Assembly: GCA_035288465.1 (NCBI GenBank)
Contig: DATEAH010000006.1
Location: 27,770-91,769 of the forward strand
Source: Patescibacteria group bacterium
GTDB taxonomy: Bacteria; Patescibacteriota; UBA1384; DATEAH01
Reading direction: 5' to 3'
Length of the DNA stretch: 64,000 nucleotides
The first letter of the stretch is position 1, and every line of letters begins with the position of its first letter. The position numbers were made by a program, and so were the translations under genes. This document shows, in pieces, positions 1,597 to 50,035 of this stretch. The notes below the pieces were generated by a model that was not told where the DNA came from, ran no database searches, and was given only the letters and a program-made list of their open reading frames with translations.

Positions 1597-1703
1597 AATT
1601 CCCCCATATTAAAACACACCAAATATAATATTGCTTTAATTTTACCGCGAATAAAGCTGAAAGGCAAACTTGTGCAGGGTCAAATCTTAATTTGACTGAG
1701 GAA

Positions 1704-1753
1704 ATAAAAAAACGTGGCTAAAAACCGACTTTTGGGTTGGTTTCGAACCACGC
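1704..1753 (-). terminator. Intrinsic terminator-like hairpin downstream of the 1769..2575 gene
   Basis: On the minus strand, an imperfect hairpin (cgtgg...ccacg with inner aaacc/ggttt pairing) is followed by a T-run (plus-strand A-run 1704-1711). It contains a tRNA T-arm-like GGTTCGAAACC, but no full cloverleaf can be drawn. Confidence 0.4.
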
Positions 1754-1768
1754 TTAGAATTTGAAAAT

Positions 1769-2575
1769 TTAAGTTTCTGCCAACAATTGCGCCCTAAACT
1801 TCTGAAGAATAATTGCTTCTTGCCGTTTTTGATCTTGCAAAGCCTGCGCTTGCTGCTGTTCTTGGGCTTTTTTTTTATCTTCCCTCTTTTGGTAATACTG
1901 TTGGTATACTTCAAGATATCCATATTCTTGGGCGATTTTAGAATTTGAAAAGGAATGGGATAGTCTATATCTGACCCTGATATCTGGGATCTCCCAACAA
2001 ATTGATTCTTCTTCAATCTTGGGTGGCTGGACTTTAGGATTAAAACCAAAATATTGTTGGCGATCAGAATCAGAGTGATAAGTAAGAAGAGACGAATCAA
2101 CATGAATTTCACACCAATCATCCTTGCACAATTGATACCGACCATAGCCGATCTCGCGGGAATCCAAAAATTCTTTCCAGGTTCTGATTCGGGCAACTAC
2201 AGGCAACAAATCATCAGGTATTTCTTCTTCGGGCAAATCAGCCGCTATTTCTAATTTGCCATCAGAATGACTCTCTGATTTTCTTGACACGATGTGGGCA
2301 GTAATTGTCTCAAAAATATCAGGGTAAAGTCGATATTGCGCTCTTAGCTCTTCATTATCAACTAAACACTCACGAACAAAGTAAACCGCAGGTTCAACAG
2401 TTTTCCAAAACAAATCTAATTTAGTTTCAGAAAAGCGTCTTTGAAAGATGTTGATTTGAACCCGAAACAAGCGATTAATTGGGGGAAGAGTTCCTGAATC
2501 AACAACAATAACAAAGCCCAAGACACCAAGTCCTGATACATATGTTGTGTAATGATATCTTTTTCCCTCAACCAT
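1769..2575 (-). CDS. Hypothetical protein
   Basis: A 268 aa ORF with no recognisable motif and a Gln/Lys-rich C-terminus. The overlapping alternate-frame ORF 1687..2196 is judged spurious. Confidence 0.45.
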   Translation of the reverse strand: MVEGKRYHYTTYVSGLGVLGFVIVVDSGTLPPINRLFRVQINIFQRRFSETKLDLFWKTVEPAVYFVRECLVDNEELRAQYRLYPDIFETITAHIVSRKSESHSDGKLEIAADLPEEEIPDDLLPVVARIRTWKEFLDSREIGYGRYQLCKDDWCEIHVDSSLLTYHSDSDRQQYFGFNPKVQPPKIEEESICWEIPDIRVRYRLSHSFSNSKIAQEYGYLEVYQQYYQKREDKKKAQEQQQAQALQDQKRQEAIILQKFRAQLLAET

Positions 2576-2860
2576 TAGGATCTGCCTCCTTGGAAGGAAA
2601 AGTTGTAGGGTGCGATGACTGCGTTTATTTTATTATAAATTGATGCCCAAGTCAACCATACAACTCGAACCCCCTGTCATCACATACGAAACTCTTGCAA
2701 TCTTGGAAAAAATCTGATATCTTATAAAGAGTAAAGATAAAAAAGTCAAAAGCAAAAATGAAGATTAAATTTTAAAATTGAATCTTATATTTTATTTTTT
2801 ATCTTAATTTATAATCTTTTCTCTTTAATTTTTAATCTTGACGAGCGAAAGCGAGGAATC

Positions 2861-3262
2861 GTGCCACAAATAAAATCTGCTAAAAAAGCCAAAAAACAAT
2901 CAGCCAAAAGACGACTTGGCAATGTTGTCACCAAAAACGTAATCAAAAAAGCCAAAAAAGCCGCCTCGGCCGCCTTAGCCAAAAAAGCCGGTGCTGCGGA
3001 AGTGAAAAAATTAGTTTCTGTGGTTGATAAAGCCGCCAAAAATCATGTCATTCATAAGAACAAAGCCGCTCGAATTAAATCAAAATATTTAATTCAATTG
3101 GCAAAATTAAAGCTAGCTTTACCCAAAAAAGAAAAAGTCAAACCGGTGGTAAAAAAACCAGCCGCCAAGAAAGCTACCAAACCAACCGCCAAATCTGCTG
3201 CCAAGAAACCGGCTAAAAAAACTGCGGCAAAAACTGCGAAAAAACCGGCTAAAAAATCATAA
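2861..3262 (+). CDS. rpsT: 30S ribosomal protein bS20 with a Lys/Ala/Pro-rich histone H1-like C-terminal extension
   Basis: GTG start. The N-terminus MPQIKSAKKAKKQSAKRR matches the S20 signature (MANIKSAKKR...). The C-terminal roughly 50 aa are AKKPAKK-type repeats. Confidence 0.8.
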   Translation: MPQIKSAKKAKKQSAKRRLGNVVTKNVIKKAKKAASAALAKKAGAAEVKKLVSVVDKAAKNHVIHKNKAARIKSKYLIQLAKLKLALPKKEKVKPVVKKPAAKKATKPTAKSAAKKPAKKTAAKTAKKPAKKS

Positions 3263-3308
3263 TTTTTATATTTAGATAAAGCCCGACTTAACTTATCATT
3301 CGCCTTTC

Positions 3309-3438
3309 CAGTATTACCGCGCCCCGCCATGCAAAACAGTTTGCTGGCGTTGCGGGCGGGTTCATGCACGACTCATGATGCGTTTGGTCGTCGGGCTGCA
3401 CAACCTATTTTTATATAATTTATGGAGTGCAGGAGGGG
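3309..3438 (+). promoter_or_regulatory. Conserved structured leader element, copy A (candidate cis-regulatory RNA) upstream of lepB
   Basis: About 130 nt, sharing conserved blocks with 16266..16387: cagtattaccgcgcc(c)cgcca, ggcgttgcgggcgggttcat, gggctgcacaacc, an AT-rich spacer, then ggagtgcaggagggg immediately 5' of the start codon. A 6-bp inverted repeat ctgcac/gtgcag flanks the AT-rich spacer. Confidence 0.5.
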
Positions 3439-3439
3439 T

Positions 3440-4051
3440 ATGCGCAATGTGATTCGACCGCGTCTATCATTAGAAAATAAAAGTTCTAAAAGCAAAATTT
3501 TTTATAGGTTAGCGCGGTTTTTTGATTTAAGCAAATGGGTTATTTTAATCGCGATTGTGATTTATTTAGGACATTTGTTTGTGGTGAGCATTTTTGCGGT
3601 TTCTGGGGCGAGCATGGAGCCAAATTTTCACGACAAAGAATATTTAATCGTCAATAAAACCTTTCGAATTATTGACCGAATTCAACGCGGTGATGTGGCG
3701 ATTTTTAAATTCCCCGGCGATCCAAACGAGCTTTATATTAAAAGAATAATTGGTTTGCCGGGCGATACGATTGAAATCAAAGATAAAGCGGTTTGGGTTA
3801 ATGGTCGGAAAATGATTGAAATGTATTTAACTAAAGATATGGTCACGGATAAATTATCAAATCAGCAAAAATGGCATCTGGGTGCCAATGAATATTTTGT
3901 GATGGGTGACAATCGCGAAAATTCGAACGACTCGCGGGTTTGGGGCAGTTTACCCAAAGAAAATATTGTTGGCATTGCTAATTTCGTAATTTTGCCAGCA
4001 GCGATGGCTGGCAAGATTCCTATCCCTGATTATTATACGAGCTCAAAATAA
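3440..4051 (+). CDS. lepB: Signal peptidase I
   Basis: S26 motifs GASMEPNF and GDNRENSNDSRVWG, with an N-terminal TM. The track ORF starts at 3422, but the ATG at 3440 directly follows the GGAGGGG SD and is the more likely start. Confidence 0.85.
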   Translation: MRNVIRPRLSLENKSSKSKIFYRLARFFDLSKWVILIAIVIYLGHLFVVSIFAVSGASMEPNFHDKEYLIVNKTFRIIDRIQRGDVAIFKFPGDPNELYIKRIIGLPGDTIEIKDKAVWVNGRKMIEMYLTKDMVTDKLSNQQKWHLGANEYFVMGDNRENSNDSRVWGSLPKENIVGIANFVILPAAMAGKIPIPDYYTSSK

Positions 4052-4054
4052 AAT

Positions 4055-5671
4055 CTAAATTAATGGTTCTTTGAGGGCCATTAGGGTCTGGGTGATAATT
4101 TCAATCATTGGATAAAGCCTTTGCGTAAATTTTGGCAAAGTGCCAATTTCGTGATAAGACAAATACCATTCAGGTAAATTAAAGGGGATACGGCTAAAAT
4201 GATTAGCCCATTCTTTCTCGCAACCCAAAACCACCGCATATGGTAAATAATTAATGAATTCTTCCCGCTGTGCTTCGGCGGCGGTAGTTTGTTTGGGATA
4301 ACGAATTAAATAACGGCGAAAAGCCAGCCAGTCCGACAAGGCGCGTCGGCCTTTTTTAGTGCGCATCGGCATTTTGCTCGATAAAGCAATGATAAATAAA
4401 GCGGCAATTGCAGATCCCGTGAAAACCAAAACTATATAAGGCGGATTGACAAAAGCTGGAGAGATAAAAACTGCCAGCGCTGACAAGAAAAACAATAAAA
4501 TGCCAAAAATTTGATATCGATAGAGTATCGTTCTGGGGCCTTGGACAAAATAACCTAATTTCGCGATTTGATCATATGCTTTGGCATATATTTTAAAAAC
4601 TGCCTCGGAAAATAAGACTTTTTCGGGTTGCTCCTCAATACCGGCTAAACTTTCTTTAAAATGGCCTTTGAGCAATTCTTCAGATAAGGCGCGATCAAAT
4701 GGCTGGGCATCGTTAAATGATTTTTTTTCACCAATATTATAGCCATCGCCTTTTTCAGAAATAACCAAATAGCCACGATTAGCTAAGTCCAAAATTTGGC
4801 TGGCAATTTCCGCCGGCCCGATTTTTTGCCGAAATAAAACGCCCACTAAAAGCGGGCTCATTTGATTGGGAGGCCGATCTGAAACTCGATCGGAAATTTC
4901 CGGCCCACCAGAACGTCGGCGAATTAAAATCATCGCTAACAAACTTAAGATGATCACGCTCGGCAAAAAGATGGTCGCCGCCAGCCAAAAATCCAAACCA
5001 GCTAATCGGATTTCCGTCATTATCTTGACCATAGTCGCCATTTTGATTAAATTTTTATTAAATTTAACTTGGCAGGTAAAGCTACTATACGGCGAGAGAT
5101 TTTTGGCATAATAATACATAGCGCCATTTTTGACTCGCGCCCCACTCTTGCCTACTCCATGAATTGCATAATGAGATAAATAAACCTGGTTAGCTTTGAC
5201 ATTCTGCGGAAAAACGAGAAAGACCTCAAGGCTATCAATATTAATCCCGGGATTTTTAATCGGCTGAAAGCGCAGTTGATATTGGTTTTCGGTTGGCATA
5301 AATTCGGCGGCTTGTTCATATTCAATGCGCCAAGTATCACCCAAATTTGGGCTTGCTAAATCATAGATTAAAATCTGGTTATCAACTTTTCGAATTTTAT
5401 ATTGATCTTTGGAGATTTTCGTGTCTGAACGATAAATTTGTAAATTTGAAATATTTTTGGCATTAATTGCCCAGGCAAAATCAGCCACAAAGCGATTTGA
5501 AAAGACAAAATTTTCCTGCACTTTTAGCCGGCCATTGTTACCAAGAATGGCATTAATTTTAAGCTGGCTAAGACTAATTGGTACAAAATTTTCTTGAGCC
5601 TGAATAGATCTTGGCCAAAACAAGATCAAACTGGCAAAAATAATTAACAAGCACTTAGACCGGAATTTCAC
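4055..5671 (-). CDS. DUF2207-like membrane protein with signal peptide, large extracytoplasmic domain and three TM segments
   Basis: Topology read from the translation: signal peptide, a roughly 200 aa domain, a TM, a roughly 130 aa loop, a TM pair and a C-terminal domain. The call rests on architecture only. Confidence 0.35.
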   Translation of the reverse strand: MKFRSKCLLIIFASLILFWPRSIQAQENFVPISLSQLKINAILGNNGRLKVQENFVFSNRFVADFAWAINAKNISNLQIYRSDTKISKDQYKIRKVDNQILIYDLASPNLGDTWRIEYEQAAEFMPTENQYQLRFQPIKNPGINIDSLEVFLVFPQNVKANQVYLSHYAIHGVGKSGARVKNGAMYYYAKNLSPYSSFTCQVKFNKNLIKMATMVKIMTEIRLAGLDFWLAATIFLPSVIILSLLAMILIRRRSGGPEISDRVSDRPPNQMSPLLVGVLFRQKIGPAEIASQILDLANRGYLVISEKGDGYNIGEKKSFNDAQPFDRALSEELLKGHFKESLAGIEEQPEKVLFSEAVFKIYAKAYDQIAKLGYFVQGPRTILYRYQIFGILLFFLSALAVFISPAFVNPPYIVLVFTGSAIAALFIIALSSKMPMRTKKGRRALSDWLAFRRYLIRYPKQTTAAEAQREEFINYLPYAVVLGCEKEWANHFSRIPFNLPEWYLSYHEIGTLPKFTQRLYPMIEIITQTLMALKEPLI

Positions 5672-5822
5672 AGCCCCCCTTGTGAGCTCCGATGCGATAT
5701 CGGAGCGAATTATGAATCATGAATCGCCTCCTCGGCGATCCACCGAAGAGGTGGATTGAGAATAATAGAATAATTAGAAATTAGACTAATTAGGTTAATT
5801 AGTTAATTCTGTCCTTATTTTA

Positions 5823-6761
5823 TCATCCCATCAAACCCAAGACAAGCAATTCCAAAGCAAAATCTGGATCAATTTGGCCAGTTTTCATGGCAATTTCCGC
5901 CGACATTAATTTTTGATAAATCAGTTTCAGATTTGATAAAGAAAAATTTCTAATCTGTTGCAAACTTTTTTGAATAACAAAAGGGTGCAATCTGGTTTTT
6001 TCGCGAATTTGGGCTGATCCCAAACCAGATTCGGATAAGGCCTTTATAATAATCAAATTTCGAAACTGGTACACAATCATGGTATGAATATATAAAGCAT
6101 TTTCGCCGGCGACGAGTAAATTTTTTAAAATTTGCTGGCTTTTGGCTAAATTTTTCGCGGCTAACGAATCAATAAGCTCAAAAATGCTGGGTGAAAATTG
6201 CGGTTTGACCAAGTCACGAACATCTTCCACGTGAATTTCTTTCCTATCTTTATATTCTATAAGTTTGTCAATTTCTAAATCTAAACGACCCAAATCATTG
6301 CCAACAAAAAAAGTTAAGGTTTCGGCGGCCTCAAAATCAATTTTGCCACCTTTTTCTTCGACTCTTTTTTTAGCCCAAGTCAAAATCCCTTGGCTTGCGA
6401 GAGGCTCAAATTGCCAGACTTTGCCAATTTCAGTGACTTTTTTAAGCACTGGATTTTTTGGGCTAAGTTCTGATTCAACAAAAACCACTGTCACTTCGGC
6501 TGGAATTTTGACAATAATTTTGGCAATTTCTTTGGCATCAGTTGGGCTGGCTTTCTTAAGGAAATTTTTCACGATGATGAGTTTTTGGGCTGATAAAAAA
6601 TTAGTAACGATAAGTGAGTTTTTAAATTGACTCAGGCTCATATTTTCGTCAAATTTTTCAATATTAAACTCAGAACCGGTTTTTTCGACAAATTTTGCTT
6701 GAACCTGGTTCATTTTTTCTAAAACGCGAAAATTGTCCTTACCATAGATTAAAAAAATCAT
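5823..6761 (-). CDS. holA: DNA polymerase III delta subunit
   Basis: N-terminus MIFLIYGKDNF, a size of 312 aa and a position overlapping the polA start by 4 nt fit HolA. Confidence 0.6.
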   Translation of the reverse strand: MIFLIYGKDNFRVLEKMNQVQAKFVEKTGSEFNIEKFDENMSLSQFKNSLIVTNFLSAQKLIIVKNFLKKASPTDAKEIAKIIVKIPAEVTVVFVESELSPKNPVLKKVTEIGKVWQFEPLASQGILTWAKKRVEEKGGKIDFEAAETLTFFVGNDLGRLDLEIDKLIEYKDRKEIHVEDVRDLVKPQFSPSIFELIDSLAAKNLAKSQQILKNLLVAGENALYIHTMIVYQFRNLIIIKALSESGLGSAQIREKTRLHPFVIQKSLQQIRNFSLSNLKLIYQKLMSAEIAMKTGQIDPDFALELLVLGLMG

Positions 6762-9505
6762 AATTTTATTTTTTTCAGTTCTTGCCAGTTGTCGCCAACC
6801 GAAATATCAACCTTGATTGGCACGTCTAATTTAAAAACATTTTCCATAATTTCGCGAATTTTAACCGCAGCACTGGCAACTTGGTCTTTGGGTACCTCAA
6901 AAACCAATTCATCATGAACCTGTAATAACATTTTTACTTTTGGCTCTTTAATTTTTGATTTTATTTTTATCATCGCCATTTTAATAATTTCCGCGGCTGT
7001 GCCTTGCGCCGGCATATTAATCGCCATTCTTTCGGCGGCTTTTTGAACTTGAGACATGCCTGAATGAATTTCTGGCAAATAGCGCTTATGACCTGATAGG
7101 GTTTCGACAAAACCGGTTTCGCGCGTCTCGGCAATCACTTCCTCAAGATATTTTTTAATGCCAGCAAAGGCTTGAAAATAGCGTTCAATAAAATTCGCGG
7201 CTTCTTTTTGGTTAATGCCCAAGCTTTGTGCTAAACCATAGGCGCTCATACCATATAAAACGCCAAAGTTGACGGTTTTGGCAACCCGTCGTTGTTGCGG
7301 AGTTACTTGATTTAAACCAACTCCAAAAATCTCCGCGGCGGTGGCAGCATGAAAATCTTCACCCTCTTTAAAAGCTTTGATGGCTTTTTGATCATCTGCC
7401 AATGACGCCATCACCCTTAATTCAATTTGGGAATAATCTGCGGAAACAATTTTATTGCCAAGACTAGCGATAAAGGCTTTGCGAATTTCCCGTCCCAACT
7501 CAGTTCGAATCGGGATATTTTGCAAATTTGGCTCAGAAGATGACAATCTGCCCGTGGCTGTAATGGTTTGATTAAAACTGGTATGCAGCCGACCAGTTTC
7601 GGGATTGATTAATTTTGGCAAGGCGTCTAGATAAGTATTTTTAAGTTTGGTCATTTCTCGATAATCGCGGATTAGGTCAATAATTTCGTGCTTGCCTTTG
7701 AGTTTTTCAAGTTCAGAGGCGGCCGTAGAATGACCAGTTTTGGTGCGCTTAACCTGAGTCAAAGGAATTTGTAATTTTTCGAACAAAATTTTTGAAAGCT
7801 GCTGGGTGGAACTAATATTAAATTCCTCACCGGCTAATTTCCAAATTTTAGCTTTAAGTTTTTCAATCTTCAAGCTAGTCTGGCGGGATAATTGCTTAAG
7901 GAATTTAGCATCAACCTTGATGCCGGCTAATTCTATTTCGGCTAAAACTTTAATTAAAGGCATTTCAATTTGATAAAAAAGCTGATCAAGTTTTTCTTCG
8001 CTAATTTTGGGCTTAAAAATATTGACCAATCTGAGCGTAATGTCAGCGTCTTCACCAGAATATTGGGCGATTTTGGCAGTTGGCACCTCGGTTAATGATT
8101 TTAAATTTTTACCTTTGCCGATCAAGTCTTCAATCGGAATCATTTCCACGCCTAATTCCGCAAAAGCGATTTGGTCTAAGTTGTGAGCGCGGGTGTGTGG
8201 ATTTAATAAATAGGACGCAATCATCGTATCAAAACTAAGCGGCGTCAATTCAATGCCATTTCTTTTTAAAACTAGATAATCATATTTTAGATTATGGCCG
8301 AATTTGGCAATTTTCGGATTTTCCAAGATTGGTTTGAGTTTTTTAAGCCAAGCTTGACCATGGTCGTTATCAACCGGAATATAAAAGGCTTTTTTTTCTT
8401 CAAAACTGACCGAGATTCCTAATAATTTGGAGGAGATTGCGTCAAGCCGGTCAGTTTCAGTGTCAATGACAATCCCTTTTTGCTGGGAAAGTTTTTGGCA
8501 GATTTGCTCAAATTGATCATTGGTTACTATTAAAAGATATTCAGCTTCAGTTTTGTGGATTGGGATATTTTTTGGGGTGGTTTTGGTTTTTTCAACGGCG
8601 GCCTCAAACAAGTTTGTTTGGCTGGTTTGTCTGGCGCCGGGAATTCTGGTCATTAAACTTCTAAATTCTAATTCTTGGAATAAATTGGCAATTCGGGTAC
8701 GGTCAAAATCGCCAAAAGCGCATTTTGCTAGTTGAATTTCTAGTGGTACATTTTGATCGATGGTGACTAGTTTTTTGGCTAATTCAGCCTGTTTTTCTGC
8801 GCCGGTTAAGAGCTTTTGGAGTTTAGGCGAAAGTTCGTCGAGGTTTTTGAAAATTTGTTCAATTGAGCCGTATTTTTCAATTAATTCCTGGCCGGTTTTT
8901 TCACCAATCCCCGCCACGCCTGGAATATTATCAGATTGATCGCCTCTCAAGGCTTTAAAATCGATCAGGCTCGTTGGTGGGAGCTGGTAGCGTTCTTGAA
9001 CTAAATCTTCATCATAAATGGCGGTATCAGTTAAACCGCGTTTCATGGTGTAAACTTTGGTTTTAGGGTTAACTAATTGCAAAGTATCAAGATCACCGGT
9101 AACAATAATAACTTCATCAACTAATTTTTGGGTCTTGGCTGCAAAAGTGCCAATAATATCGTCGGCTTCAAAACCAGCCTTTTCGATCACTGGCACACTA
9201 AAAGCTTCAATAATTTCTTTAATTTTGGGAATTTGATCGTATAATTCCTGAGGCGCGGCAACCCGTTTGGCTTTGTACTCTTTAAAAGCTTTATGCCTGA
9301 AAGTTGGTTTTTTAATATCAAAAGCCGTCACTAAAAAATCCGGTTTTAAGTCCCGAATCATATTCAAAAAAATCATGCAGAAACCATAAACCGCATTCAC
9401 CGGCTGACCAGATTTTGTGGTAAGATGCGGAATTGCATGAAAGGCGCGGTGCACAATCGCTGGCGCATCGACTAAAACTAATCTTTTTTTAGTTTTGGAC
9501 ATCAA
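6758..9505 (-). CDS. polA: DNA polymerase I
   Basis: A 915 aa protein with a 5'-3' exonuclease N-terminus (LVLVDAPAIVHRAFHA), a 3'-5' exonuclease region and polymerase motifs (DYSQIELR, KTVNFGVLYG, QVHDELVFE). Confidence 0.95.
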   Translation of the reverse strand: MMSKTKKRLVLVDAPAIVHRAFHAIPHLTTKSGQPVNAVYGFCMIFLNMIRDLKPDFLVTAFDIKKPTFRHKAFKEYKAKRVAAPQELYDQIPKIKEIIEAFSVPVIEKAGFEADDIIGTFAAKTQKLVDEVIIVTGDLDTLQLVNPKTKVYTMKRGLTDTAIYDEDLVQERYQLPPTSLIDFKALRGDQSDNIPGVAGIGEKTGQELIEKYGSIEQIFKNLDELSPKLQKLLTGAEKQAELAKKLVTIDQNVPLEIQLAKCAFGDFDRTRIANLFQELEFRSLMTRIPGARQTSQTNLFEAAVEKTKTTPKNIPIHKTEAEYLLIVTNDQFEQICQKLSQQKGIVIDTETDRLDAISSKLLGISVSFEEKKAFYIPVDNDHGQAWLKKLKPILENPKIAKFGHNLKYDYLVLKRNGIELTPLSFDTMIASYLLNPHTRAHNLDQIAFAELGVEMIPIEDLIGKGKNLKSLTEVPTAKIAQYSGEDADITLRLVNIFKPKISEEKLDQLFYQIEMPLIKVLAEIELAGIKVDAKFLKQLSRQTSLKIEKLKAKIWKLAGEEFNISSTQQLSKILFEKLQIPLTQVKRTKTGHSTAASELEKLKGKHEIIDLIRDYREMTKLKNTYLDALPKLINPETGRLHTSFNQTITATGRLSSSEPNLQNIPIRTELGREIRKAFIASLGNKIVSADYSQIELRVMASLADDQKAIKAFKEGEDFHAATAAEIFGVGLNQVTPQQRRVAKTVNFGVLYGMSAYGLAQSLGINQKEAANFIERYFQAFAGIKKYLEEVIAETRETGFVETLSGHKRYLPEIHSGMSQVQKAAERMAINMPAQGTAAEIIKMAMIKIKSKIKEPKVKMLLQVHDELVFEVPKDQVASAAVKIREIMENVFKLDVPIKVDISVGDNWQELKKIKL

Positions 9506-12825: not shown

Positions 12826-13947
12826 ATGAAAATTTTAGGGATTGAAACCTCTTACGACCCCGCAAAGTCCCGACAAGTCGGAACAGCGGGGCAAGTGAAA
12901 CCGCGACAACTTATTCTTGGCATCGAAACTTCATGTGACGAAACAGCAGCAGCGGTTGTTAAAGTAGGTTCTGAAATTGAGATTCTGTCTAATGTCGTTG
13001 CCTCGCAAATTAAATTACATCGCCAATACGGCGGTGTTTTTCCTGAATTAGCCTCCAGAACTCATTTAGAAAATATTTTACCAACCATTAATTTAGCGTT
13101 AAAAAAGGCTCGGACTAATTTTGCCGAACTCGAGGCGATTGCCGTCACGGTCGGGCCGGGTTTAATTGGCTCACTTTTGATGGGGGTGGAGACTGCTAGA
13201 ACCTTGGCATATAGTTTCAAAAAACCTTTAATCGGCATAAATCACCTAGAGGGGCATCTGGCGGCTAATTTTGTTGATAAAAATTTAAAACAAATTGAAT
13301 TTCCGATTATTTGCTTAATCGTGTCGGGCGGGCATACTAGTTTAGTATTAATGCGTAAATTGGGAAATTATAAAACGATTGGCCAAACCCGAGATGATGC
13401 GGCCGGTGAAGCTTTTGATAAGGTGGCGCAGTTGTTGGGCTTAGAATATCCTGGAGGACCAGCAATTGAAGTCGCAGCTTTAAAAAGTAGAAAATTAGAA
13501 CTTAAAATTAAACTTCCAAGACCGATGATTGACAGCGAAGATTTTGATTTTTCGTTTTCCGGACTTAAGACCGCAGTTTTAAGGCTGACTAAAGAATTAG
13601 GACCTAAAAAAATCCAACAATTTAGAAACGAAATCGCGGCTGAATTTCAACAGGCAATTGTGGATGTTTTGGTCGCAAAAACCTTGAAAGCGGCTCAAAA
13701 ATATCAGGCGAAAACTATTTTGCTCTCTGGCGGCGTCGCGGCAAATTCAGCTTTAAGGAAAAAATTAGAAGCTGAAACCCTTAATTCAAAAGCTAATTTT
13801 TTGATGCCGCCCAAAAATCTCTGCACAGACAATGCGGCGATGATCGCGGTCGCCGCGGCTTTAAAAATTAACACAAAATCCGCCGCTCAAGAATTTAATA
13901 AAGGGTGGCAAAAAATCTCCGCGCAATCTAATTTAGAGTTGAGCTAA
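12826..13947 (+). CDS. tsaD: tRNA N6-adenosine threonylcarbamoyltransferase
   Basis: LILGIETSCDETAAAVV and the HxxGH-type Kae1/TsaD core. The first 33 codons duplicate the ILGIETS motif around a GC-rich hairpin. An in-frame GTG at 12895 preceded by GGGG is an alternative start. Confidence 0.85.
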   Translation: MKILGIETSYDPAKSRQVGTAGQVKPRQLILGIETSCDETAAAVVKVGSEIEILSNVVASQIKLHRQYGGVFPELASRTHLENILPTINLALKKARTNFAELEAIAVTVGPGLIGSLLMGVETARTLAYSFKKPLIGINHLEGHLAANFVDKNLKQIEFPIICLIVSGGHTSLVLMRKLGNYKTIGQTRDDAAGEAFDKVAQLLGLEYPGGPAIEVAALKSRKLELKIKLPRPMIDSEDFDFSFSGLKTAVLRLTKELGPKKIQQFRNEIAAEFQQAIVDVLVAKTLKAAQKYQAKTILLSGGVAANSALRKKLEAETLNSKANFLMPPKNLCTDNAAMIAVAAALKINTKSAAQEFNKGWQKISAQSNLELS

Positions 13948-13978: not shown

Positions 13979-16180
13979 ATGAATAAAGAATTGTCTAAAC
14001 AATACGAGCCGAAAAAAGTTGAGCCTGAAATTTATCAATATTGGGAAAAAGGCAAATTTTTTGAAGCTAATATTGATACCGGCAAAGAACCATTCTGCAT
14101 GATGATTCCGCCTCCAAACGTGACCGGTGAATTGCATATGGGTCATGCTTTAAACAATACGATTATTGACAGCTTGATTCGCTGGCAAAGGATGAAAGGC
14201 AAAAACGCTCTCTATCAGCCAGGTACTGATCATGCCGGCATTGCCACTCAAAACAAAGTTGAGCAAAAATTAGCCAAAGAAGGCAAAACCCGCTTGGATC
14301 TTGGCCGAAAAAATTTTGAGAAAGAGGTTTGGAACTGGAAAAACCAATACGAAAAAAGGATTTTGGGCCAGCTAAAAACTTTGGGCTGTTCGTGTGATTG
14401 GCAACGCAACCGCTTTACGATGGATGCCGAATATACTGAAGCGGTCATGACCGCCTTTAAACATTATTATGATAAGGGTTGGATTTATCAAGGTACGCGC
14501 GTAGTTAACTGGTGCCCGCGTTGCGCAACTTCAATTTCCGATATTGAGGTCAAACACAAACCGCAAAAAACTCTCTTATATTATTTTAAATATGATTTAA
14601 AATTTCCGATTACCATCGCCACCACCAGGCCAGAAACAAAACTTGGCGACACTGGCGTGGCAGTGCATCCCAAGGACAAGAGATATAAAAAATTTATTGG
14701 CAAAACTTTTCAAATTGATTTTGCCGGCCAAAAACGCGAGATCAAAGTGGTCGCCGATTCTTCGATTAATCGCAAATTTGGCACCGGGGCAGTGGGCTTG
14801 ACGCCAGCGCATTCAATAATTGATGAAAAAATCGCGGACAAAAATCACTTGGAAAAAATCAAGATAATTGATGAAAAAATTAGAATGACTGAAGCTGCTG
14901 GCAAGGATTTTGTCGGTTTGCGGCCAAAAGCAGCTCGCGAAAAAGTTGTCGCCTGGTTGCGCGATCAAAAATTAATATCAAGGGAAGTTGAAATCGAGCA
15001 TAATTTATCACTTTGTGATCGCTGTTCAACTACGGTTGAACCTTTGCCGTCTTTGCAATGGTTTTTAAAAATGTCGCAATTGGCTAAACCCGCCATTGAA
15101 GCTGTAAAAACGGGGAAAATTAAATTTCACCCCGCATTTTGGAAAAAAGTGTATTTGGCTTGGATGGAAAATATTGAAGATTGGTGCATTTCCAGACAGC
15201 TTTGGTGGGGACACAGATTGCCGGTATGGCACAAACAGGAAGAAATCCGAAATCCGAAATCCGAAATCCTAAACAAATCCCAATTTCAAAATTCCAAAAG
15301 TTTAGAAATTAGAAATTCGGATTTAGACATTTATGTTGGCGATAATCCGCCTGAAGGTTATGAACAAGTTGAAGATGTTTTAGACACTTGGTTTTCATCA
15401 GCCTTGTGGCCGTTTGCGGCTCTGGGTTGGCCGCAACCATCGCCGGTTTTTCAATATTATTTTCCCACCCAAATTTTGTCAACCGCCCGTGATATTATTT
15501 TCTTATGGGTGGCGAGAATGATTTTTTCCAGCTTGGAGTTAACTGGCGAGATTCCCTTTCGCGATGTTTATATCCATCCGACAATTTTTAATATTGAAGG
15601 CAGGCGCATGTCTAAATCTTTAGGCACTGGTGTTGATCCTTTGGAATTAATTAAAAAATACGGTGCAGATGCGGTTAGATTTGGTTTGCTCGCACAAAAT
15701 ACTGGGGTTCAGGATTTAAAATTTTCCGAAGACACCATCGCGGCTGGTGCAAAATTTGCGAACAAAATTTGGAATGCGGTCAGATTCGTGCGCATGAATT
15801 TGGAAATTTCCGACACCAAACTCCAAAAAATGGACAAAGCCCCAAAAGCGATTACTGACCACGATAAGAAGTTTCTCAACAACTTGAATAATATCATCAA
15901 ATCAACTGATAATAATTTGACGAATTTCCGCTTTGGCCAGACTGCCCAAGAATTATATAACTTTTTCTGGCATACTTTTTGCGATCAATATTTGGAATAT
16001 TCCAAAGAGCAGATGAAAGACGAAAAGCTCAAAAAAAATACCCAAAAAATTTTATATTACACCATTTGCCAAAGTTTGAAATTAATGCATCCGATTATGC
16101 CATTTATTACCGAAGAAATTTGGCGTGAACTCGGTCAAAAAACGCCATTGATAATTTCTGAGTGGCCGAAAAGTCAGTAA
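13979..16180 (+). CDS. valS: Valyl-tRNA synthetase (short form lacking the C-terminal coiled coil) with an in-frame repeat-derived insertion
   Basis: PPPNVTGELHMGHA (HIGH), DWCISRQLWWGHRLP, DTWFSSALWPF and GRRMSKSLG (KMSKS) identify the enzyme. A roughly 30 aa insertion lies between the WCISRQ and DTWFSS blocks. Confidence 0.9.
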   Translation: MNKELSKQYEPKKVEPEIYQYWEKGKFFEANIDTGKEPFCMMIPPPNVTGELHMGHALNNTIIDSLIRWQRMKGKNALYQPGTDHAGIATQNKVEQKLAKEGKTRLDLGRKNFEKEVWNWKNQYEKRILGQLKTLGCSCDWQRNRFTMDAEYTEAVMTAFKHYYDKGWIYQGTRVVNWCPRCATSISDIEVKHKPQKTLLYYFKYDLKFPITIATTRPETKLGDTGVAVHPKDKRYKKFIGKTFQIDFAGQKREIKVVADSSINRKFGTGAVGLTPAHSIIDEKIADKNHLEKIKIIDEKIRMTEAAGKDFVGLRPKAAREKVVAWLRDQKLISREVEIEHNLSLCDRCSTTVEPLPSLQWFLKMSQLAKPAIEAVKTGKIKFHPAFWKKVYLAWMENIEDWCISRQLWWGHRLPVWHKQEEIRNPKSEILNKSQFQNSKSLEIRNSDLDIYVGDNPPEGYEQVEDVLDTWFSSALWPFAALGWPQPSPVFQYYFPTQILSTARDIIFLWVARMIFSSLELTGEIPFRDVYIHPTIFNIEGRRMSKSLGTGVDPLELIKKYGADAVRFGLLAQNTGVQDLKFSEDTIAAGAKFANKIWNAVRFVRMNLEISDTKLQKMDKAPKAITDHDKKFLNNLNNIIKSTDNNLTNFRFGQTAQELYNFFWHTFCDQYLEYSKEQMKDEKLKKNTQKILYYTICQSLKLMHPIMPFITEEIWRELGQKTPLIISEWPKSQ
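15241..15330. repeat. MITE-like palindromic repeat copy R3, inserted in-frame inside valS
   Basis: The DNA agaaatccgaaatccgaaatccgaaatcctaaacaaatcccaatttcaaaattccaaaagtttagaaattagaaattcggatttag matches the intergenic copies at 9537, 27021, 31660 and 49830. It includes the same ctaaacaaatcccaat core and has inverted-repeat ends. It encodes EEIRNPKSEILNKSQFQNSKSLEIRNSDLDI. Confidence 0.65.
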
Positions 16181-16265
16181 ACGGTTAACAATCAACAGTT
16201 AATAACTCTGTGGTCCGAAATAGAGATTGGGGATTATGCCCGCCAAGTCTTAGAACTCACCTTTT

Positions 16266-16387
16266 CAGTATTACCGCGCCCGCCATTACTACGCTCAGGC
16301 GTTGCGGGCGGGTTCATACACGGTTCGTGCTGCGAATATCAGCGGGTTGCACACCAATTATATTAATTTTCTGGAGTGCAGGAGGGG
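16266..16387 (+). promoter_or_regulatory. Conserved structured leader element, copy B, upstream of the TPR gene
   Basis: It shares the same conserved blocks as 3309..3438 at about 85-90% identity. Intervening variable segments could each form their own hairpins. It ends ggagtgcaggagggg. Confidence 0.5.
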
Positions 16388-26136: not shown

Positions 26137-26916
26137 ATGACTAGTTCTAGTTCTGGATTTGGTTCAAATTCGAAGCAGGCGCAGAAGAAAAAAGAAACTA
26201 CCCAGGCTCATTTGCCGATCGCCGAGATTCGAAATGGCTGCGTGGTTTTAAAAGACGGCAGTTTGCGTTTGGTGCTTTTGGTTTCCACTATTAATTTTGA
26301 CCTGAAAAACGAGGACGAGCAAAACGCCCTGGTTTATGCATATCAGAATTTTTTGAATTCCCTGACTTTCCCAATCCAAATTGTGATGCAATCGCGACGA
26401 ATTGATTTGTCGGGCTATTTATCAGAGTTAAGCGCCAGATTGCCGCAAATCGAAAATCCCCTTTTACAGCTTCAGATTGAAGATTATTCAGCGTTTATTC
26501 AAAAATTAATTACTGTCGCCAATATTATGAATAAAAAGTTTTTTATCGTCATCCCTTTTTTCCCGCCAGCCCTGAAACAAACGGCTGGTTTTTGGGAAAA
26601 AGCTAAATCTGCGATCACGGCGCAAGAACCAGTCATTGACATGACTCATTTTGAAGAATACCGCAAAGAATTGATCCAGCGGGCACAAGCAGCCGCTTCC
26701 GGATTAGCGGCTTTAGGTTTGCGAGCAATTCAACTGACAACTCAAGAATTAATTGAATTATATTACCAAAGTTATAACCCAGAATTGGCGGTCCGTGAAA
26801 AATTAATCCCGATTGAGCAATTATCCGCGGCGGTCAGCCAAAGCCGAGACCAAACGCCACCAAGCTCACCACCAACCAACAATTACGGACAAGGTCCAGC
26901 CGCCAATAAGCAGTAA
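26137..26916 (+). CDS. VirB4/TrbE-like N-terminal domain protein (split VirB4, part 1)
   Basis: LPIAEIRNGCVVLKDGSLRLVLLVSTINFDLKNEDEQNALVYAYQNFLNSL resembles the VirB4 N-terminal region (…vLKDGS…e…g.~fe…). Confidence 0.45.
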   Translation: MTSSSSGFGSNSKQAQKKKETTQAHLPIAEIRNGCVVLKDGSLRLVLLVSTINFDLKNEDEQNALVYAYQNFLNSLTFPIQIVMQSRRIDLSGYLSELSARLPQIENPLLQLQIEDYSAFIQKLITVANIMNKKFFIVIPFFPPALKQTAGFWEKAKSAITAQEPVIDMTHFEEYRKELIQRAQAAASGLAALGLRAIQLTTQELIELYYQSYNPELAVREKLIPIEQLSAAVSQSRDQTPPSSPPTNNYGQGPAANKQ

Positions 26917-26974
26917 ACATCCGCCAGCTGGCGGAAACAGACAGCAATCATCAATTACCAATCAAATCTTAAGT

Positions 26975-27056
26975 ATCAAATTCTAAACCGTTTGGAATTT
27001 GAAAATTTAAATTTTAAAAATTGTTTAGAAATTAGGATTTAGAGATTAGAATTTAA
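26975..27056. repeat. MITE-like palindromic repeat copy R4, between the two VirB4 parts
   Basis: Contains ttgtttagaaattaggatttagagattagaattt. It is flanked by GC-rich palindromes ccgccagctggcgg (26922-26935) and aagcccccatgggctt (27058-27073). Confidence 0.55.
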
Positions 27057-27084
27057 CAAGCCCCCATGGGCTTGAAGGAGCTGA

Positions 27085-28860: not shown

Positions 28861-28907
28861 CGACTTCAAACTCTAAGCACGAAACTCTAATTACTAAACA
28901 AACTACA

Positions 28908-29273
28908 ATGACACAAATTTCAAATAACAAACAATACGATTTGGAAGATAGAACACTTAAGTTTGCCAAAACTATTATCCGGTTTATTAACAAATTACCC
29001 AAAACTATTTCTAATATTGAAATTGCCAGACAACTAATTAGATCTGCGGGTTCAATTGGTGCAAACTATATTGAAGCTAACGAGTCGTTAAGCAAAAAAG
29101 ATTTTATTATGAGAATAAAAATTTGTAAAAAAGAAGCGAAGGAAAGTCGTTATTGGCTCAATTTGATTGAAATAATTAAAAACCCCGAATTAGATGAAGA
29201 AAGATTAAACTATCTTCAAGAAACTACTGAATTGATGAAAATTTTTGGTTCAATATTAGAAAAAATAAAATAA
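28908..29273 (+). CDS. Four-helix-bundle protein (Avd-like family), paralog 3
   Basis: Contains QLIRSAGSIGANYIEANESLSKKDFIMRIKICKKEAKESRYWL. Confidence 0.7.
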   Translation: MTQISNNKQYDLEDRTLKFAKTIIRFINKLPKTISNIEIARQLIRSAGSIGANYIEANESLSKKDFIMRIKICKKEAKESRYWLNLIEIIKNPELDEERLNYLQETTELMKIFGSILEKIK

Positions 29274-29280
29274 TTTTTTG

Positions 29281-29345
29281 GGATTTTGGAAAATTAATAT
29301 TTATTATTTGTTTAGAATTTAGATATTATAATTTAGGATTTAACT
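29281..29345. repeat. MITE-like repeat copy R6
   Basis: atttgtttagaatttagatattataatttaggatttaac is similar to the right arm of the other copies. Confidence 0.45.
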
Positions 29346-29349
29346 TACA

Positions 29350-30553: not shown

Positions 30554-31639
30554 ATGAATAAAAAAACCATTATTTATATAACACTTGGCGGAATATTATT
30601 AGTTTTGATAATCTTGGCTATAATTTTTTCTAAAAATCAAGGCTATAATAATTTATTAAGCAAAAAAGCCACGACTAACATAAATAGTGAAAAAATTTTA
30701 AACAGAAAAATTTCTTATCCCTCCTTATTGAAAGAAAAAAATAATATATTATTTTTAGACATTGTTGAAGAAAAGTTAGGTGTGATTAATTTAGAAACCA
30801 AAGATTCTGAATTTATTTCACCTGATTTAAAATTGTTTGAATCATTATATGATATTATTTGGTCCCCCGAAGCCAAACAAGTATTTTTTAAGATAATTTA
30901 TAATGATAGTTTTAATAAGTGGGGTGGCTTCTTCTGGGAATCTAAAATTAAAGAAGGGGAAAATACAATCTGGCATTTTGATCTAAATGAAAACAAACCA
31001 AAAATACTTCAAAACAATATTGTAGATTTACTATGGTTGTCTGAATCTCAAATTATGTATATTTATCAAGAAAATAATAAAAGCAAATCCTTGTATAAGA
31101 GTAACCCCCAACTTACCAACCAACAAAAATTGTTCAATTTGCCTAACGAGGCCTTTGAATTGTTAAATTATAATCGACAGACTAATATTTTATACTACTC
31201 CAGATCTATACAATCCATAGGGGGAGGTTTTGACATCTATAAACTCAATCTAAATACAGGAAAAGAAGAAAAAATTCTAGGCGGAATTAGGCAAATATTT
31301 ATTTCGCCTGATCAAAGATTTATTGTTTATGGTAAATATGAAGAAGATGACCAAACTTATTTACTTAAAGTAGATGGAAATCAAATCAATAAAATGGATT
31401 TTATCCCCAATGAATGTATTTTTTACATTAAAGATAATAAGCCCCATGCTCTTCTGTCAGGACTCAAAAAAAATGATCCTTTATTGGGAATGATAGATTT
31501 AAATGAGGGGAAAATAATAAAATATATTTATTCAAATAAAGATATAAAATTTTACGAAAATCTAATACTATCCCGTGACGGCAAAGCTTTGTATTTCACA
31601 TCAGATGATTATTTATATAAAATGGAAATAGCAGAATAA
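30554..31639 (+). CDS. Membrane-anchored hypothetical protein (Asn/Lys-rich, beta-rich)
   Basis: An N-terminal TM (IIYITLGGILLVLIILAIIF). No motif was recognised. Confidence 0.4.
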   Translation: MNKKTIIYITLGGILLVLIILAIIFSKNQGYNNLLSKKATTNINSEKILNRKISYPSLLKEKNNILFLDIVEEKLGVINLETKDSEFISPDLKLFESLYDIIWSPEAKQVFFKIIYNDSFNKWGGFFWESKIKEGENTIWHFDLNENKPKILQNNIVDLLWLSESQIMYIYQENNKSKSLYKSNPQLTNQQKLFNLPNEAFELLNYNRQTNILYYSRSIQSIGGGFDIYKLNLNTGKEEKILGGIRQIFISPDQRFIVYGKYEEDDQTYLLKVDGNQINKMDFIPNECIFYIKDNKPHALLSGLKKNDPLLGMIDLNEGKIIKYIYSNKDIKFYENLILSRDGKALYFTSDDYLYKMEIAE

Positions 31640-31640
31640 A

Positions 31641-31772
31641 AAATTCTAAATCCTGAATCCGAGATCCTAAACAAATTCTAATTTTCCAAATTACAAATTT
31701 CAAACAAGTTTGAGATTTAAAACATTGGAATTTAAATATTGTTTAGAAATTAGTGCTTAGGATTTCGAATTT
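31641..31772. repeat. MITE-like palindromic repeat copy R7 (most complete)
   Basis: Left arm gagatcctaaacaaattctaattttcc and right arm attgtttagaaattagtgcttaggatttcgaattt. It is followed by a ccugcc-UUCG-gcggg tetraloop hairpin (31774-31788) just 5' of the AAGGAGGGG SD. Confidence 0.6.
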
Positions 31773-31803
31773 ATCCTGCCTTCGGCGGGACTAAGGAGGG
31801 GTT

Positions 31804-49370: not shown

Positions 49371-49844
49371 TTATTCAGATTCGGTATCAACTTTAACAAT
49401 TTGGGTTTTACTTTTGGCTTCTTTGGGAACAATGATAGTTAAAACCCCATGTTTAAGAGTAGCTTTAGCTTTTTCTGGATCAACGCCGGTTGGTAAGGAA
49501 ACTTGTCTGGAAAATGTCCCCCAATAACATTCTTGAGCAAAATAATCTTCTGCTTTGACTTCAGCTTCTTGTTGTCGCGAACCTTTAACGGTGACGGTAT
49601 TATCAACGATGGAAACTTCTAAGTTTTCGGGTTTAACACCGGCAATAGGCGCCTTAATCACAATCGATTCCGCGGTTTGGTAAGCATCAAGCGCTAATTG
49701 GCCTTCGATTTCGGCCATCCACTCTTCTTTATTTTCAGGATTATCATCGGCTTTTTCACCGAAAATTTTAGAAACAGTTGGACTTTCTTTCGCCATCTTG
49801 CCCTCCTTTCCTGCCACAGCGGGAAAAATTGAAATCCTAAGCAC
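49371..49844 (-). CDS. Hsp20/alpha-crystallin small heat-shock protein
   Basis: ACD region ...VSLPTGVDPEKAKATLKHGVLTIIVPK at 157 aa. Confidence 0.85.
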   Translation of the reverse strand: MLRISIFPAVAGKEGKMAKESPTVSKIFGEKADDNPENKEEWMAEIEGQLALDAYQTAESIVIKAPIAGVKPENLEVSIVDNTVTVKGSRQQEAEVKAEDYFAQECYWGTFSRQVSLPTGVDPEKAKATLKHGVLTIIVPKEAKSKTQIVKVDTESE

Positions 49845-49946
49845 TAATTTCTAAACAAATCTTAAATCTCAATTTTCCAATTTTTTAAATATGTTTCTAA
49901 TTTCTAATTTGTTTAGGATTTAGAATTCCGATATTCGGATATTGTT
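49809..49946. repeat. MITE-like palindromic repeat copy R8
   Basis: Hairpin cctgcc-acag-cggg, then aaattgaaatcctaagcactaatttctaaacaaatc ... tctaatttgtttaggatttagaattcc plus the tccgatattcgga palindrome. It is the inverse complement of the R7 right arm. Confidence 0.6.
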
Positions 49947-50035
49947 AACTGTGGATAACTATTTTTATTATAAAACATTCAGAGATTTTTGCAAGTCCCG
50001 CCTTAAAGCTTTAAGATAAAAATTGGGCAAATAAA

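Follow-up and report, generated by a model that had tools for sequence, protein, structure and literature searches.

Short palindromic repeats that occur both between genes and in frame inside unrelated essential genes are best known from Rickettsia, where the Rickettsia palindromic elements (RPEs) each carry a conserved ORF and nearly half of the copies lie in genes (Ogata et al. 2000, as summarised in PMC10969869). A second class of small palindromic insertions, the intervening sequences (IVSs) of 23S rRNA, has been described in Leptospira, Coxiella and Xanthomonas. These have terminal inverted repeats that form a long stem cut by RNase III, usually sit in helices 9, 25 and 45, and can carry an S23p/PF05635 four-helix-bundle ORF in the loop, although short ORF-less versions exist (PMC4990558). 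In the Coxiella IVS, tandem heptameric repeats are present in variable number (PMC4990558). In CPR bacteria, a survey reported many short (<200 bp) insertions without intron features at known IVS sites of 23S rRNA, as well as 23S_rRNA_IVP ORFs in 16S and 23S insertions (Tsurumaki et al. 2024, PMC11270868). Lastly, MITEs such as ERIC, Coxiella QMITE1 and the Anabaena MITEs are small non-autonomous repeats with inverted ends that make occasional in-frame fusions (PMC10969869, PMC5896051). Here, we describe a palindromic repeat of roughly 90 bases that sits in frame inside the essential valyl-tRNA synthetase (ValRS) gene of a CPR (Patescibacteria) bacterium, and that belongs to a family of the rRNA IVS type.

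The analysed stretch of DNA, hereafter the window, comprises 64,000 nucleotides of contig DATEAH010000006.1 (assembly GCA_035288465.1, positions 27,770 to 91,769 of the forward strand). A sequence-only reading had proposed that a segment of valS is a copy of an AT-rich palindromic repeat family found between genes, that it is read in frame, that it lies in a variable surface region between the WCISRQ and DTWFSS blocks, and that it resembles RPEs in its behaviour. All four parts of this reading hold. The family has five other copies in the window, four of them intergenic and one split into a pair at 28862-28921 and 29288-29347 that flanks an ORF (see the table).

Features of the palindromic repeat family and its valS host gene in the window (positions in nucleotides of the window; L-numbered labels denote compared sequences, L002 being the closest relative).
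Position	Strand	Feature	Evidence and remarks
13979..16180	+	valS (valyl-tRNA synthetase), 733 aa, host gene	1GAX ValRS match at E=3.9e-178; homologues are named valine--tRNA ligase
15242..15331	+	In-frame copy of the palindromic element, encoding E422-I451 (EIRNPKSEILNKSQFQNSKSLEIRNSDLDI)	Profile search, frame analysis and predicted structure (see text)
15242..15269	+	Left arm: four tandem GAAATCC heptamers	The only strict period-7 run in the window (0 in Markov-shuffled controls)
15269..15274	+	Left core CTAAAC	The next 10 nt, AAATCCCAAT, are shared exactly with the 9.5-kb copy
15275..15299	+	Loop of 25 nt	CCCAATT lies where other copies, and the PF05635 cassette, have ...AATG (the ORF start)
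15300..15331	+	Right core GTTTAG (15300-15305) plus right arm AAATTAGAAATTCGGATTTAGACATT	Differs at 1 position from GTTTAGAAATTAGAAATTCGGATTTAGAAATT, found in valS of L001, L005 and L006 and in lepA of L061
9510..9645		Intergenic copy upstream of polA	Absent from the syntenic spacer of L002
26951..27060		Intergenic copy upstream of a TraG-like ATPase gene	
28862..28907	+	Left arm of the ORF-carrying copy	CTAAAC at 28894
28908..29273	+	PF05635/TIGR02436 four-helix-bundle ('23S rRNA intervening sequence') protein gene, in the loop of the element	Pfam E=1.9e-15; TIGR02436 E=2.4e-22
29288..29347	+	Right arm of the ORF-carrying copy	GTTTAG at 29310-29315
31635..31778		Intergenic copy	Best hairpin in the window (MFE -31 kcal/mol, z -5.1)
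49819..49948		Intergenic copy between the divergent hsp20 and a phosphoribosyltransferase-domain gene	

Membership of the valS segment in this family is statistically secure. An nhmmer profile built from the 9 non-valS half-sites hits the left half of the segment (15242-15294) at E=2.2e-8 and the right half (15333-15283, reverse strand) at E=5.4e-5, while the next hit is noise at E=1.7. The 16-mer CTAAACAAATCCCAAT is exact at 9544 and at 15269, and with up to 2 mismatches it has 4 matches against 0.2 expected. The segment also follows the family architecture of arm, TYCTAAAC, loop, GTTTAGRA and arm, with TCCTAAAC ending at 15274 and GTTTAGAA starting at 15300. An assembly artefact is rejected, as four ValRS variants about 99.7-100% identical to one another, one of them seen on 11 contigs, come from NCBI, JGI, ENA and a read-derived source, and all carry the insert. 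No presence/absence polymorphism was seen among these 4 cluster members.

Relative to the shortest orthologous form, the insert adds about 29 residues (E421-D450) to ValRS. The region between WCISRQ and DTWFSS is hypervariable, ranging from 26 to 195 aa among 120 homologues. In the AlphaFold model (mean pLDDT 89.9), the only segment below 50 is residues 423-448, located between strands 416-419 and 451-453. The insert is predicted to be a hydrophilic, disordered loop at the tip of a β-hairpin in the catalytic-domain insertion, at a position where Thermus ValRS has a Cys-rich knuckle. Its predicted tryptic peptides, SEILNK, SQFQNSK, SLEIR and NSDLDIYVGDNPPEGYEQVEDVLDTWFSSALWPFAALGWPQPSPVFQYYFPTQILSTAR, are short or very long.

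Two corrections to the sequence-only reading are needed. First, the insert is not specific to this lineage: six other CPR ValRS, 54-61% identical in protein, carry the same element at the same site, whereas the closest relatives (66-70% identical) and one other clade (P0110-P0120) lack it. This does not count against the reading, because those genomes also carry the repeat family. In the seven lineages, the extra length at the valS site relative to the shortest form is 87, 93, 93, 96, 81, 63 and 63 nt, always a multiple of 3. Second, unlike RPEs, the family is essentially non-coding. In 109 non-coding copies there are on average about 3 stops per frame and only 0.9% of frames are open, and all four intergenic copies in the window are closed in all six frames. 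The valS copy, in contrast, is open only in the frame in use. One of 6 copies in the window, and about 1 of 110 exact-core copies elsewhere, is coding.

Several lines of evidence identify the family as being of the rRNA IVS type. In a relative (L009), the same profile hits four hairpins inside the 23S rRNA gene, at E. coli positions 130-177, 538-555, 1143-1177 and 1704-1770, which appear to correspond to helices 9, 25, 45 and 63; the first three are the usual IVS sites (PMC4990558). Further copies lie in 23S helix 45 of L011, L026 and L097 and in a 16S gene of L062. Besides the window, the arms bracket a PF05635/TIGR02436 gene in L004, L031 and L094, with related arms in L124. Interestingly, 30 of 111 hairpin-only loops keep ATGA[CT]NAAA, the start of that ORF, in the forward orientation, against 1 in the reverse-complement control, so that hairpin-only copies look like internal deletions of the PF05635 cassette. 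The arms are built of heptamers, and a 7-nt periodicity of pairing is seen in 108 elements. The rRNA copies form long stems (MFE -29 to -47 kcal/mol, z -4.8 to -7.8) and intergenic copies have z -2 to -4.6, while the valS copy is weak (MFE -14 kcal/mol, z -1.5 to -2.7). However, the arms of 108 elements show no compensatory covariation beyond the family consensus (own-partner complementarity of 0.562 against 0.553 for permuted partners), so selection for a hairpin as such is not demonstrated. The gathering-threshold Rfam scan of the whole window found only two tRNAs, and a permissive scan of 26900-31900 gave only chance-level hits, so no described RNA family fits. The family also occurs outside CPR. 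Contamination of non-CPR MAGs by CPR contigs was rejected as an explanation for these hits, because the host loci have 50-63% GC and the hits include complete chromosomes.

Other observations point to mobility or ongoing exchange. The same element, with the same right arm (30 of 31 nt), lies in frame in lepA of a Saccharibacterium and in the LepA fragment P0124, and related heptamer arrays lie in TsaD; a search with a 65-aa concatenated query gave only one hit, a LepA fragment. Copies are absent from both the syntenic polA spacer and valS of L002. Moreover, the insert DNA is 87-91% identical between lineages whose valS four-fold sites are 28-40% identical, which is saturation. On the other hand, no transposase was found, although the window was not fully screened for these, and no target-site duplication or clean empty site was seen when filled valS alleles were compared with the shortest allele, that of L009. 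This only 'empty' allele still holds AATTTAGAAATT, which matches the element's tail and may be a deletion remnant. A scan of IMG/VR with the core pattern gave 0 hits and therefore no sign of a phage vehicle. Identical junctions in seven lineages fit one ancient insertion better than repeated transposition, in which case the high DNA conservation needs another cause, such as gene conversion or selection on the nucleotides. A neighbour-joining tree of 120 ValRS did not decide between one insertion and many: carriers fall in at least 4 places, but the tree is poorly resolved and the surrounding subdomain is itself gained and lost repeatedly (MIN28, ZN and YVG forms are interleaved).

Taken together, we are reasonably confident that the valS segment is a stop-free copy of a palindromic, probably mobile element of the 23S rRNA IVS type that has become part of the valS reading frame. 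It is transcribed with the gene; its translation is inferred from frame and stop purging only, and tolerance of the loop by the enzyme is likewise inferred. Because ordinary family members are closed (about 99% of frames), only rare variants that are stop-free and a multiple of 3 nt long can survive in an essential gene, which is what is seen here and in other lineages. At the RNA level, the coding copy has lost much of the long stem that RNase III cuts in rRNA IVSs, so the mRNA probably escapes cleavage.

Alternative explanations appear unlikely. The loop could be a slippage-prone tract of heptanucleotide repeats that expands and contracts in situ, resembling the intergenic repeats only because both are built from the same favoured heptamers. 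The strict (GAAATCC)x4 run agrees with this, as do the GAAG(TYAAAAG)x4 that is all L002 has at the site, the arrays without a loop in L007 and L008 (whose extra length of 63 nt is 9 heptamers), and the variation in heptamer copy number between Coxiella strains (PMC4990558). However, the non-repetitive core and loop, including the 16-mer and GTTTAG, are shared with other copies, the leave-one-out E-values are secure, and an almost identical element sits in the unrelated gene lepA; the presence of the core and loop in lepA and in rRNA copies also argues against this view. Slippage probably does remodel the arms after insertion, and is thereby a contributing process rather than an alternative origin.

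It is similarly doubtful that the extra peptide (…LEIRNSDLEIYVG) is a functional extension of CPR ValRS, for example a tRNA or partner contact, kept by selection on the protein. The peptide is near-identical in seven ValRS lineages, many CPR ValRS carry Lys/Ser-rich hairpin extensions at this site, and the insert is fixed within the species. Yet synonymous positions of the insert are conserved too (30-34 of 33-36 nt) while four-fold sites elsewhere are saturated, pointing to constraint or exchange at the DNA level. Furthermore, the insert is predicted to be disordered, the nearest relatives and the P0110-P0120 clade lack it, the same peptide appears in LepA, and the frame is forced by stop codons. 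Equally unlikely is a cis-acting RNA element, in which the hairpin would be an RNase III or other processing site that tunes ValRS expression. This would explain the nucleotide-level conservation of the insert, which exceeds that of the host gene, and family members in rRNA do lie at sites where IVSs are cut by RNase III (PMC4990558), while L006 keeps a good stem (z -5.0). Nevertheless, four of the seven valS copies have no significant structure (z +0.7 to -0.3), the window copy pairs only 9 + 6 bp across large internal loops, and there is no covariation. Very unlikely, finally, is that the segment is removed from the RNA or bypassed by the ribosome, like an intron, an IVS or a translational hop: although relatives of the element in rRNA are excised post-transcriptionally in other bacteria (PMC4990558), excision by RNase III does not religate the RNA, stop purging in the valS frame and lengths that are multiples of 3 are expected only if ribosomes read through, and the Rfam scans (whole window at the gathering threshold, 26900-31900 permissively) gave no intron. 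Nor can a 29-aa low-complexity peptide be an intein.

It is tempting to speculate, albeit tentatively, that the valS insert is one visible tip of a single family of heptamer-armed palindromes, with or without a PF05635 (Avd-like four-helix-bundle) gene, that is conserved in sequence across phyla. Such a family would supply the classical 23S and 16S rRNA IVSs, litter intergenic spacers and, as stop-purged copies, colonise β-hairpin loops of essential translation proteins (ValRS, LepA, TsaD) in CPR bacteria. The conservation of its DNA where host synonymous sites are saturated, together with its 23-34% GC in hosts of 50-63% GC, would imply an active, sequence-specific homing or gene-conversion mechanism, possibly mediated by the PF05635 protein binding the heptamer arms. 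This would also give a first functional handle on this protein family and on rRNA IVSs, whose origin has been open since 1990. In any case, the element connects the origin and mobility of bacterial rRNA IVSs, the function of the very widespread four-helix-bundle proteins, and the many unexplained short insertions in CPR rRNAs and proteins. In practice, such inserts inflate and distort CPR protein alignments, and their low-complexity peptides (EIRNSK and KSQIPN types) may appear in gene calls from metagenomes.

Compared with MITEs, the family shares small size, inverted ends, the appearance of an internal-deletion derivative of a longer ORF-carrying element and occasional in-frame fusions, but the cargo is not a known transposase, no target-site duplication was seen for the valS copy, and the sequence is conserved across phyla and does not track host GC content. 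The rRNA copies in L009, L011, L026, L097 and L062 are evidently of the kind surveyed by Tsurumaki et al. (PMC11270868), where, in the sections considered here, we found no mention of a shared palindromic or heptamer sequence family, of copies outside rRNA, or of in-frame copies in proteins. As with RPEs, the element is found between genes and in frame in unrelated essential genes of a bacterium with a reduced genome, adding a surface peptide without destroying the protein. We consider it to work like an RPE, without claiming membership; its hosts are CPR and other phyla, and it is tied to rRNA IVSs and a PF05635 gene, which RPEs are not. With the 23S rRNA IVSs, the family shares the terminal inverted repeats, the helix 9, 25 and 45 sites, the optional four-helix-bundle ORF, the tandem heptamers and the ORF-less versions. 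Here, however, the copy in question lies in a protein-coding gene and is presumably translated rather than excised, most family copies lie outside rRNA, and the heptamers are RAAATYC-like instead of the GACAGAT of Coxiella.

The region 15000-15600 of the window reads as described in the sequence-only reading, which had seen a copy of an AT-rich palindromic repeat family placed in frame within valS. The valS open reading frame encodes 733 aa and is a full-length match to Thermus thermophilus ValRS 1GAX (E=3.9e-178). Within it, the segment starts with GAAG followed by four tandem GAAATCC heptamers, and continues with CTAAAC, a 25-nt loop, GTTTAG and a right arm. The heptamer run is the only strict period-7 tract in the 64 kb, and Markov-shuffled controls gave none. 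The 16-mer CTAAACAAATCCCAAT recurs exactly near 9.5 kb, and when up to 2 mismatches are allowed there are 4 matches against 0.2 expected.

Coordinates of the features in the window and in the loci compared with it
Locus	Feature	Coordinates	Strand
Window	valS open reading frame	13979-16180	+
Window	GAAG followed by (GAAATCC)x4	15242-15269	
Window	CTAAAC of the valS copy	15269-15274	
Window	GTTTAG of the valS copy	15300-15305	
Window	Right arm of the valS copy, AAATTAGAAATTCGGATTTAGACATT	running to 15331	
Window	Exact recurrence of the 16-mer CTAAACAAATCCCAAT	9544	
Window	Other elements of the family	9.5 kb; 27.0 kb; 28.9/29.3 kb; 31.7 kb; 49.9 kb	
Window	CTAAAC of the left arm of the ORF-carrying copy	28894	
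Window	PF05635/TIGR02436 ORF, 121 aa	28908-29273	
Window	GTTTAG of the right arm of the ORF-carrying copy	29310	
Window	In-frame N-terminal insert region of TsaD	12826-12920	
Window	Second repeat family, 5′ of start codons	3275-3439, 16232-16387, 43374-43452 (+) and 48337-48392 (-)	
Window	Short GC-rich hairpins	27055-27075; 31775-31795; 49803-49822	
L061 (Saccharibacterium)	Element in frame in lepA	3557-3660	-
L005 (relative with the valS insert)	Second insert in valS	7202-7250	
L004 (relative with the valS insert)	PF05635 gene immediately downstream of valS	8549-8920	
L005	PF05635 gene immediately downstream of valS	7617-7973	
L009 (relative)	Region of the interrupted 23S rRNA gene, with a group I intron upstream at 770-1002	750-8750	

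Convergent TYCTAAAC...GTTTAGRA pairs define six elements in the window, of which the one in valS is the only coding copy. To determine whether their similarity exceeds chance, the 11 half-sites were anchored on CTAAAC, and an nhmmer profile was built from the 9 that are not in valS and searched against the window. The valS left half scored E=2.2e-8 and the right half E=5.4e-5, all other true copies scored between 3e-10 and 3e-5, and the next hit had E=1.7. Family membership is therefore secure. The protein cluster of this ValRS has four variants that are about 99.7-100% identical, one of which was seen on 11 contigs, with NCBI, JGI, ENA and a read-derived set as sources. All four variants carry the insert; it is not an assembly artefact, and no allele lacking it was found. 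At three of the intergenic copies, short GC-rich hairpins (e.g. cctgccttcggcggga) lie between the AT-rich element and the Shine-Dalgarno sequence of the downstream gene.

Among 120 CPR homologues, the stretch between WCISRQ and DTWFSS ranges from 26 to 195 residues and occurs in three basic forms: a minimal form, a Cys-rich knuckle as in Thermus, and a ...PVW-[variable]-IYVGDNPP... hairpin. The insert lies in the variable turn of the third form. An AlphaFold model built with 73 homologues has a mean pLDDT of 89.9, and its only segment below 50 is residues 423-448, between strands 416-419 and 451-453, so the extra roughly 29 residues are predicted to be a disordered surface loop. In some CPR lineages, the same loop hosts whole extra domains of about 130-150 aa (ValRS homologues P0007, P0011, P0105 and P0111), which in P0007 and P0011 are flanked by KIKNQKSK-type heptamer peptides, while homologues P0019 and P0021 have nested inserts.

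Three results identify the family as an element of the rRNA intervening-sequence (IVS) type. First, a 121-aa ORF in the window lies exactly between a left and a right arm of the element and is a PF05635 '23S rRNA-intervening sequence protein' (E=1.9e-15) and a TIGR02436 four-helix-bundle protein (E=2.4e-22). Second, in locus L009, a relative whose ValRS is one of a set that includes a protein named Candidatus Wolfebacteria, the same profile hits four hairpins of about 130 nt inside the 23S rRNA gene. Aligned to E. coli rrlH, these replace positions 130-177, 538-555, 1143-1177 and 1704-1770, which most likely correspond to helices 9, 25, 45 and 63, and each forms a long AT-rich stem on a GC-rich base. 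Helices 9, 25 and 45 are the usual IVS sites (PMC4990558). The same 23S rRNA gene is also interrupted by several insertions encoding LAGLIDADG endonucleases. Third, the Coxiella IVS, which carries a PF05635 ORF, has a 28-bp terminal stem cut by RNase III, as well as tandem heptameric repeats whose number varies between strains (PMC4990558); the arms here are likewise heptamer-based.

To assess the wider distribution of the family, one genome per GTDB species was scanned with CTAATTTCTAAACN{25,55}GTTTAGRA, giving about 110 obvious family members with the same arms and loops. Hosts include many Patescibacteria, but also Nitrospirae, Dehalococcoidia, Desulfobacterota/Syntrophobacterales (among them a complete chromosome), Pirellulales, Bacteroidetes, Gammaproteobacteria, Akkermansiaceae, WOR-3 and ANME-1 archaea; the family is conserved in sequence across phyla, Planctomycetes and Verrucomicrobia included. 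The element stays at 23-34% GC inside loci of 50-63% GC, so these are not mis-binned CPR contigs. No hit was obtained in the 2.9 million viral contigs of IMG/VR. Five of the hits are inside rRNA genes, namely 23S helix 45 in loci L011, L026 and L097, about position 1860 in L108, and a 16S gene in L062, and one more (L096) lies just upstream of a 23S gene. Five loci also hold a PF05635 gene, and where those genes are complete, they are flanked by heptamer-type arms. Furthermore, 30 of 111 hairpin-only loops contain ATGA[CT]NAAA, the start of the PF05635 ORF (Met-Thr-Lys/Asn/Gln), in the forward orientation, while the reverse-complement control gives 1. The short elements therefore look like internal-deletion derivatives of the ORF-carrying cassette. 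The window's own copies keep CTAAAC + 8 nt + ATG (the 9.5-kb copy and the cassette) or ATT (valS).

Coding copies are exceptional. In 109 non-coding copies of about 98 nt, each frame holds about 3 stop codons, only 0.9% of frames are open, and only 5% of elements have any open frame. All four intergenic copies in the window are closed in all six frames, whereas the valS copy is open in exactly one frame, the frame of valS. In L001, one of the homologous valS loci examined, the heptamer whose TAA would fall in frame reads GAA instead. The right arm GTTTAGAAATTAGAAATTCGGATTTAGAAATT has only one open frame on its strand, which explains why it always reads LEIRNSDLEI.

Of eight homologous valS genes for which the DNA was retrieved, six (L001, L004, L005, L006, L007 and L008) carry the element at the same codon position with nearly the same junctions; their ValRS proteins are 54-61% identical to that of the window. 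Counting the window, the extra length relative to the shortest form is 87, 93, 93, 96, 81, 63 and 63 nt in the seven carriers. L009 has the short form TAT AAA AAT TTA GAA ATT TAC, which still contains AATTTAGAAATT and may be a deletion remnant. The closest relative, L002, is syntenic and 70% identical over aligned columns, but has only GAAG(TYAAAAG)x4 at the valS site, and has no element upstream of polA either. Four-fold degenerate sites of these valS genes are 28-40% identical, which is saturation. In contrast, the inserts are 87-91% identical, with ungapped arms matching at 28-34 of 33-36 positions. The insert is therefore far better conserved at the DNA level than the essential gene around it.

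The same element also lies in frame in lepA, in the beta-hairpin before the LNLIDTPGH motif. In the Saccharibacterium locus L061 (TIGR01393 at 694 bits, with the match split by the insert), the right arm matches the valS copy at 30 of 31 nt, and a LepA fragment from another sample (P0124) reads HQILNPKSEILNKSKIQNSNFSKSLEIRNSDLEI, a peptide nearly identical to the valS insert. TsaD proteins of the related CPR loci (L001, L002 and L004-L007) hold up to four heptamer-array or hairpin-derived inserts, for example KFEIRNSKFEI three times in L007, and these tend to lie at the same loops in different lineages, notably just before LPRPM. The second insert in L005 is in the anticodon-binding part of ValRS.

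TsaD of the window begins MKILGIETS-YDPAKSRQVGTAGQVKPRQL-ILGIETSCDE, an 81-nt in-frame N-terminal insert containing a GC-rich palindrome (CCCCGC...GCGGGG) between two diverged copies (15 of 21 nt) of the ILGIETS-coding segment. It looks like a second, different in-frame palindromic insertion with a target-like duplication, and is absent from TsaD of L002. In addition, a second repeat family ends in an invariant GAGTGCAGGAGGGG immediately 5′ of four start codons (4 exact copies, 0 expected). Upstream lies CTGCAC, which can pair with GTGCAG, and two copies share about 150 nt. This family has no Rfam match and may be a leader or RBS-sequestering motif.

At the RNA level, the rRNA copies fold best (z-scores of -4.8 to -7.8), compared with -2 to -4.6 for intergenic copies and +0.7 to -5.0 for valS copies. 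Four of the seven valS copies are indistinguishable from shuffled sequence, and the window copy pairs only 9 + 6 bp (MFE -14 kcal/mol; z -1.5 with dinucleotide shuffles and -2.7 with mononucleotide shuffles). Across 108 elements, an arm is no more complementary to its own partner than to the arms of other elements (0.562 against 0.553). What is conserved is the sequence of the arms, and no compensatory change is detectable.

The best-supported account is that the valS segment is an in-frame, stop-free copy of an IVS-type palindromic element and that, as inferred only from its frame and the purging of stops, it is translated as a tolerated loop that is predicted to be disordered. No transposase was seen, although the window was not fully screened for one, nor was a target duplication found when the valS copy was compared with the shortest allele. 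The shared valS site might reflect either one old insertion kept similar to the family by gene conversion or repeated site-preferring insertion; the NJ tree places carriers in at least 4 places but is poorly resolved. Among the alternatives, pure in-situ heptamer slippage cannot explain the shared non-repetitive core or the lepA copy, and protein-level selection cannot explain the conserved synonymous sites. A regulatory RNA hairpin is weakened by the poor folding of most valS copies. Removal from the mRNA is contradicted by the purging of stops.

A survey of CPR rRNA insertions noted many short non-intron insertions at IVS sites and 23S_rRNA_IVP ORFs, but in the sections consulted described no shared repeat family and no copies outside rRNA (PMC11270868). 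What is added here is the identification of the family as IVS/PF05635-type, its cross-phylum conservation, and the recurrence of the same insert in ValRS and LepA of several CPR lineages, of which we found no description in the searchable literature. In-frame insertion itself is already known from Rickettsia palindromic elements (PMC10969869), to which the sequence-only reading had likened the valS segment. That interpretation is supported, as the behaviour of the segment matches that of Rickettsia palindromic elements. The element itself, however, is of a different kind: it is basically non-coding, it is related to rRNA IVSs, and it is linked to PF05635.
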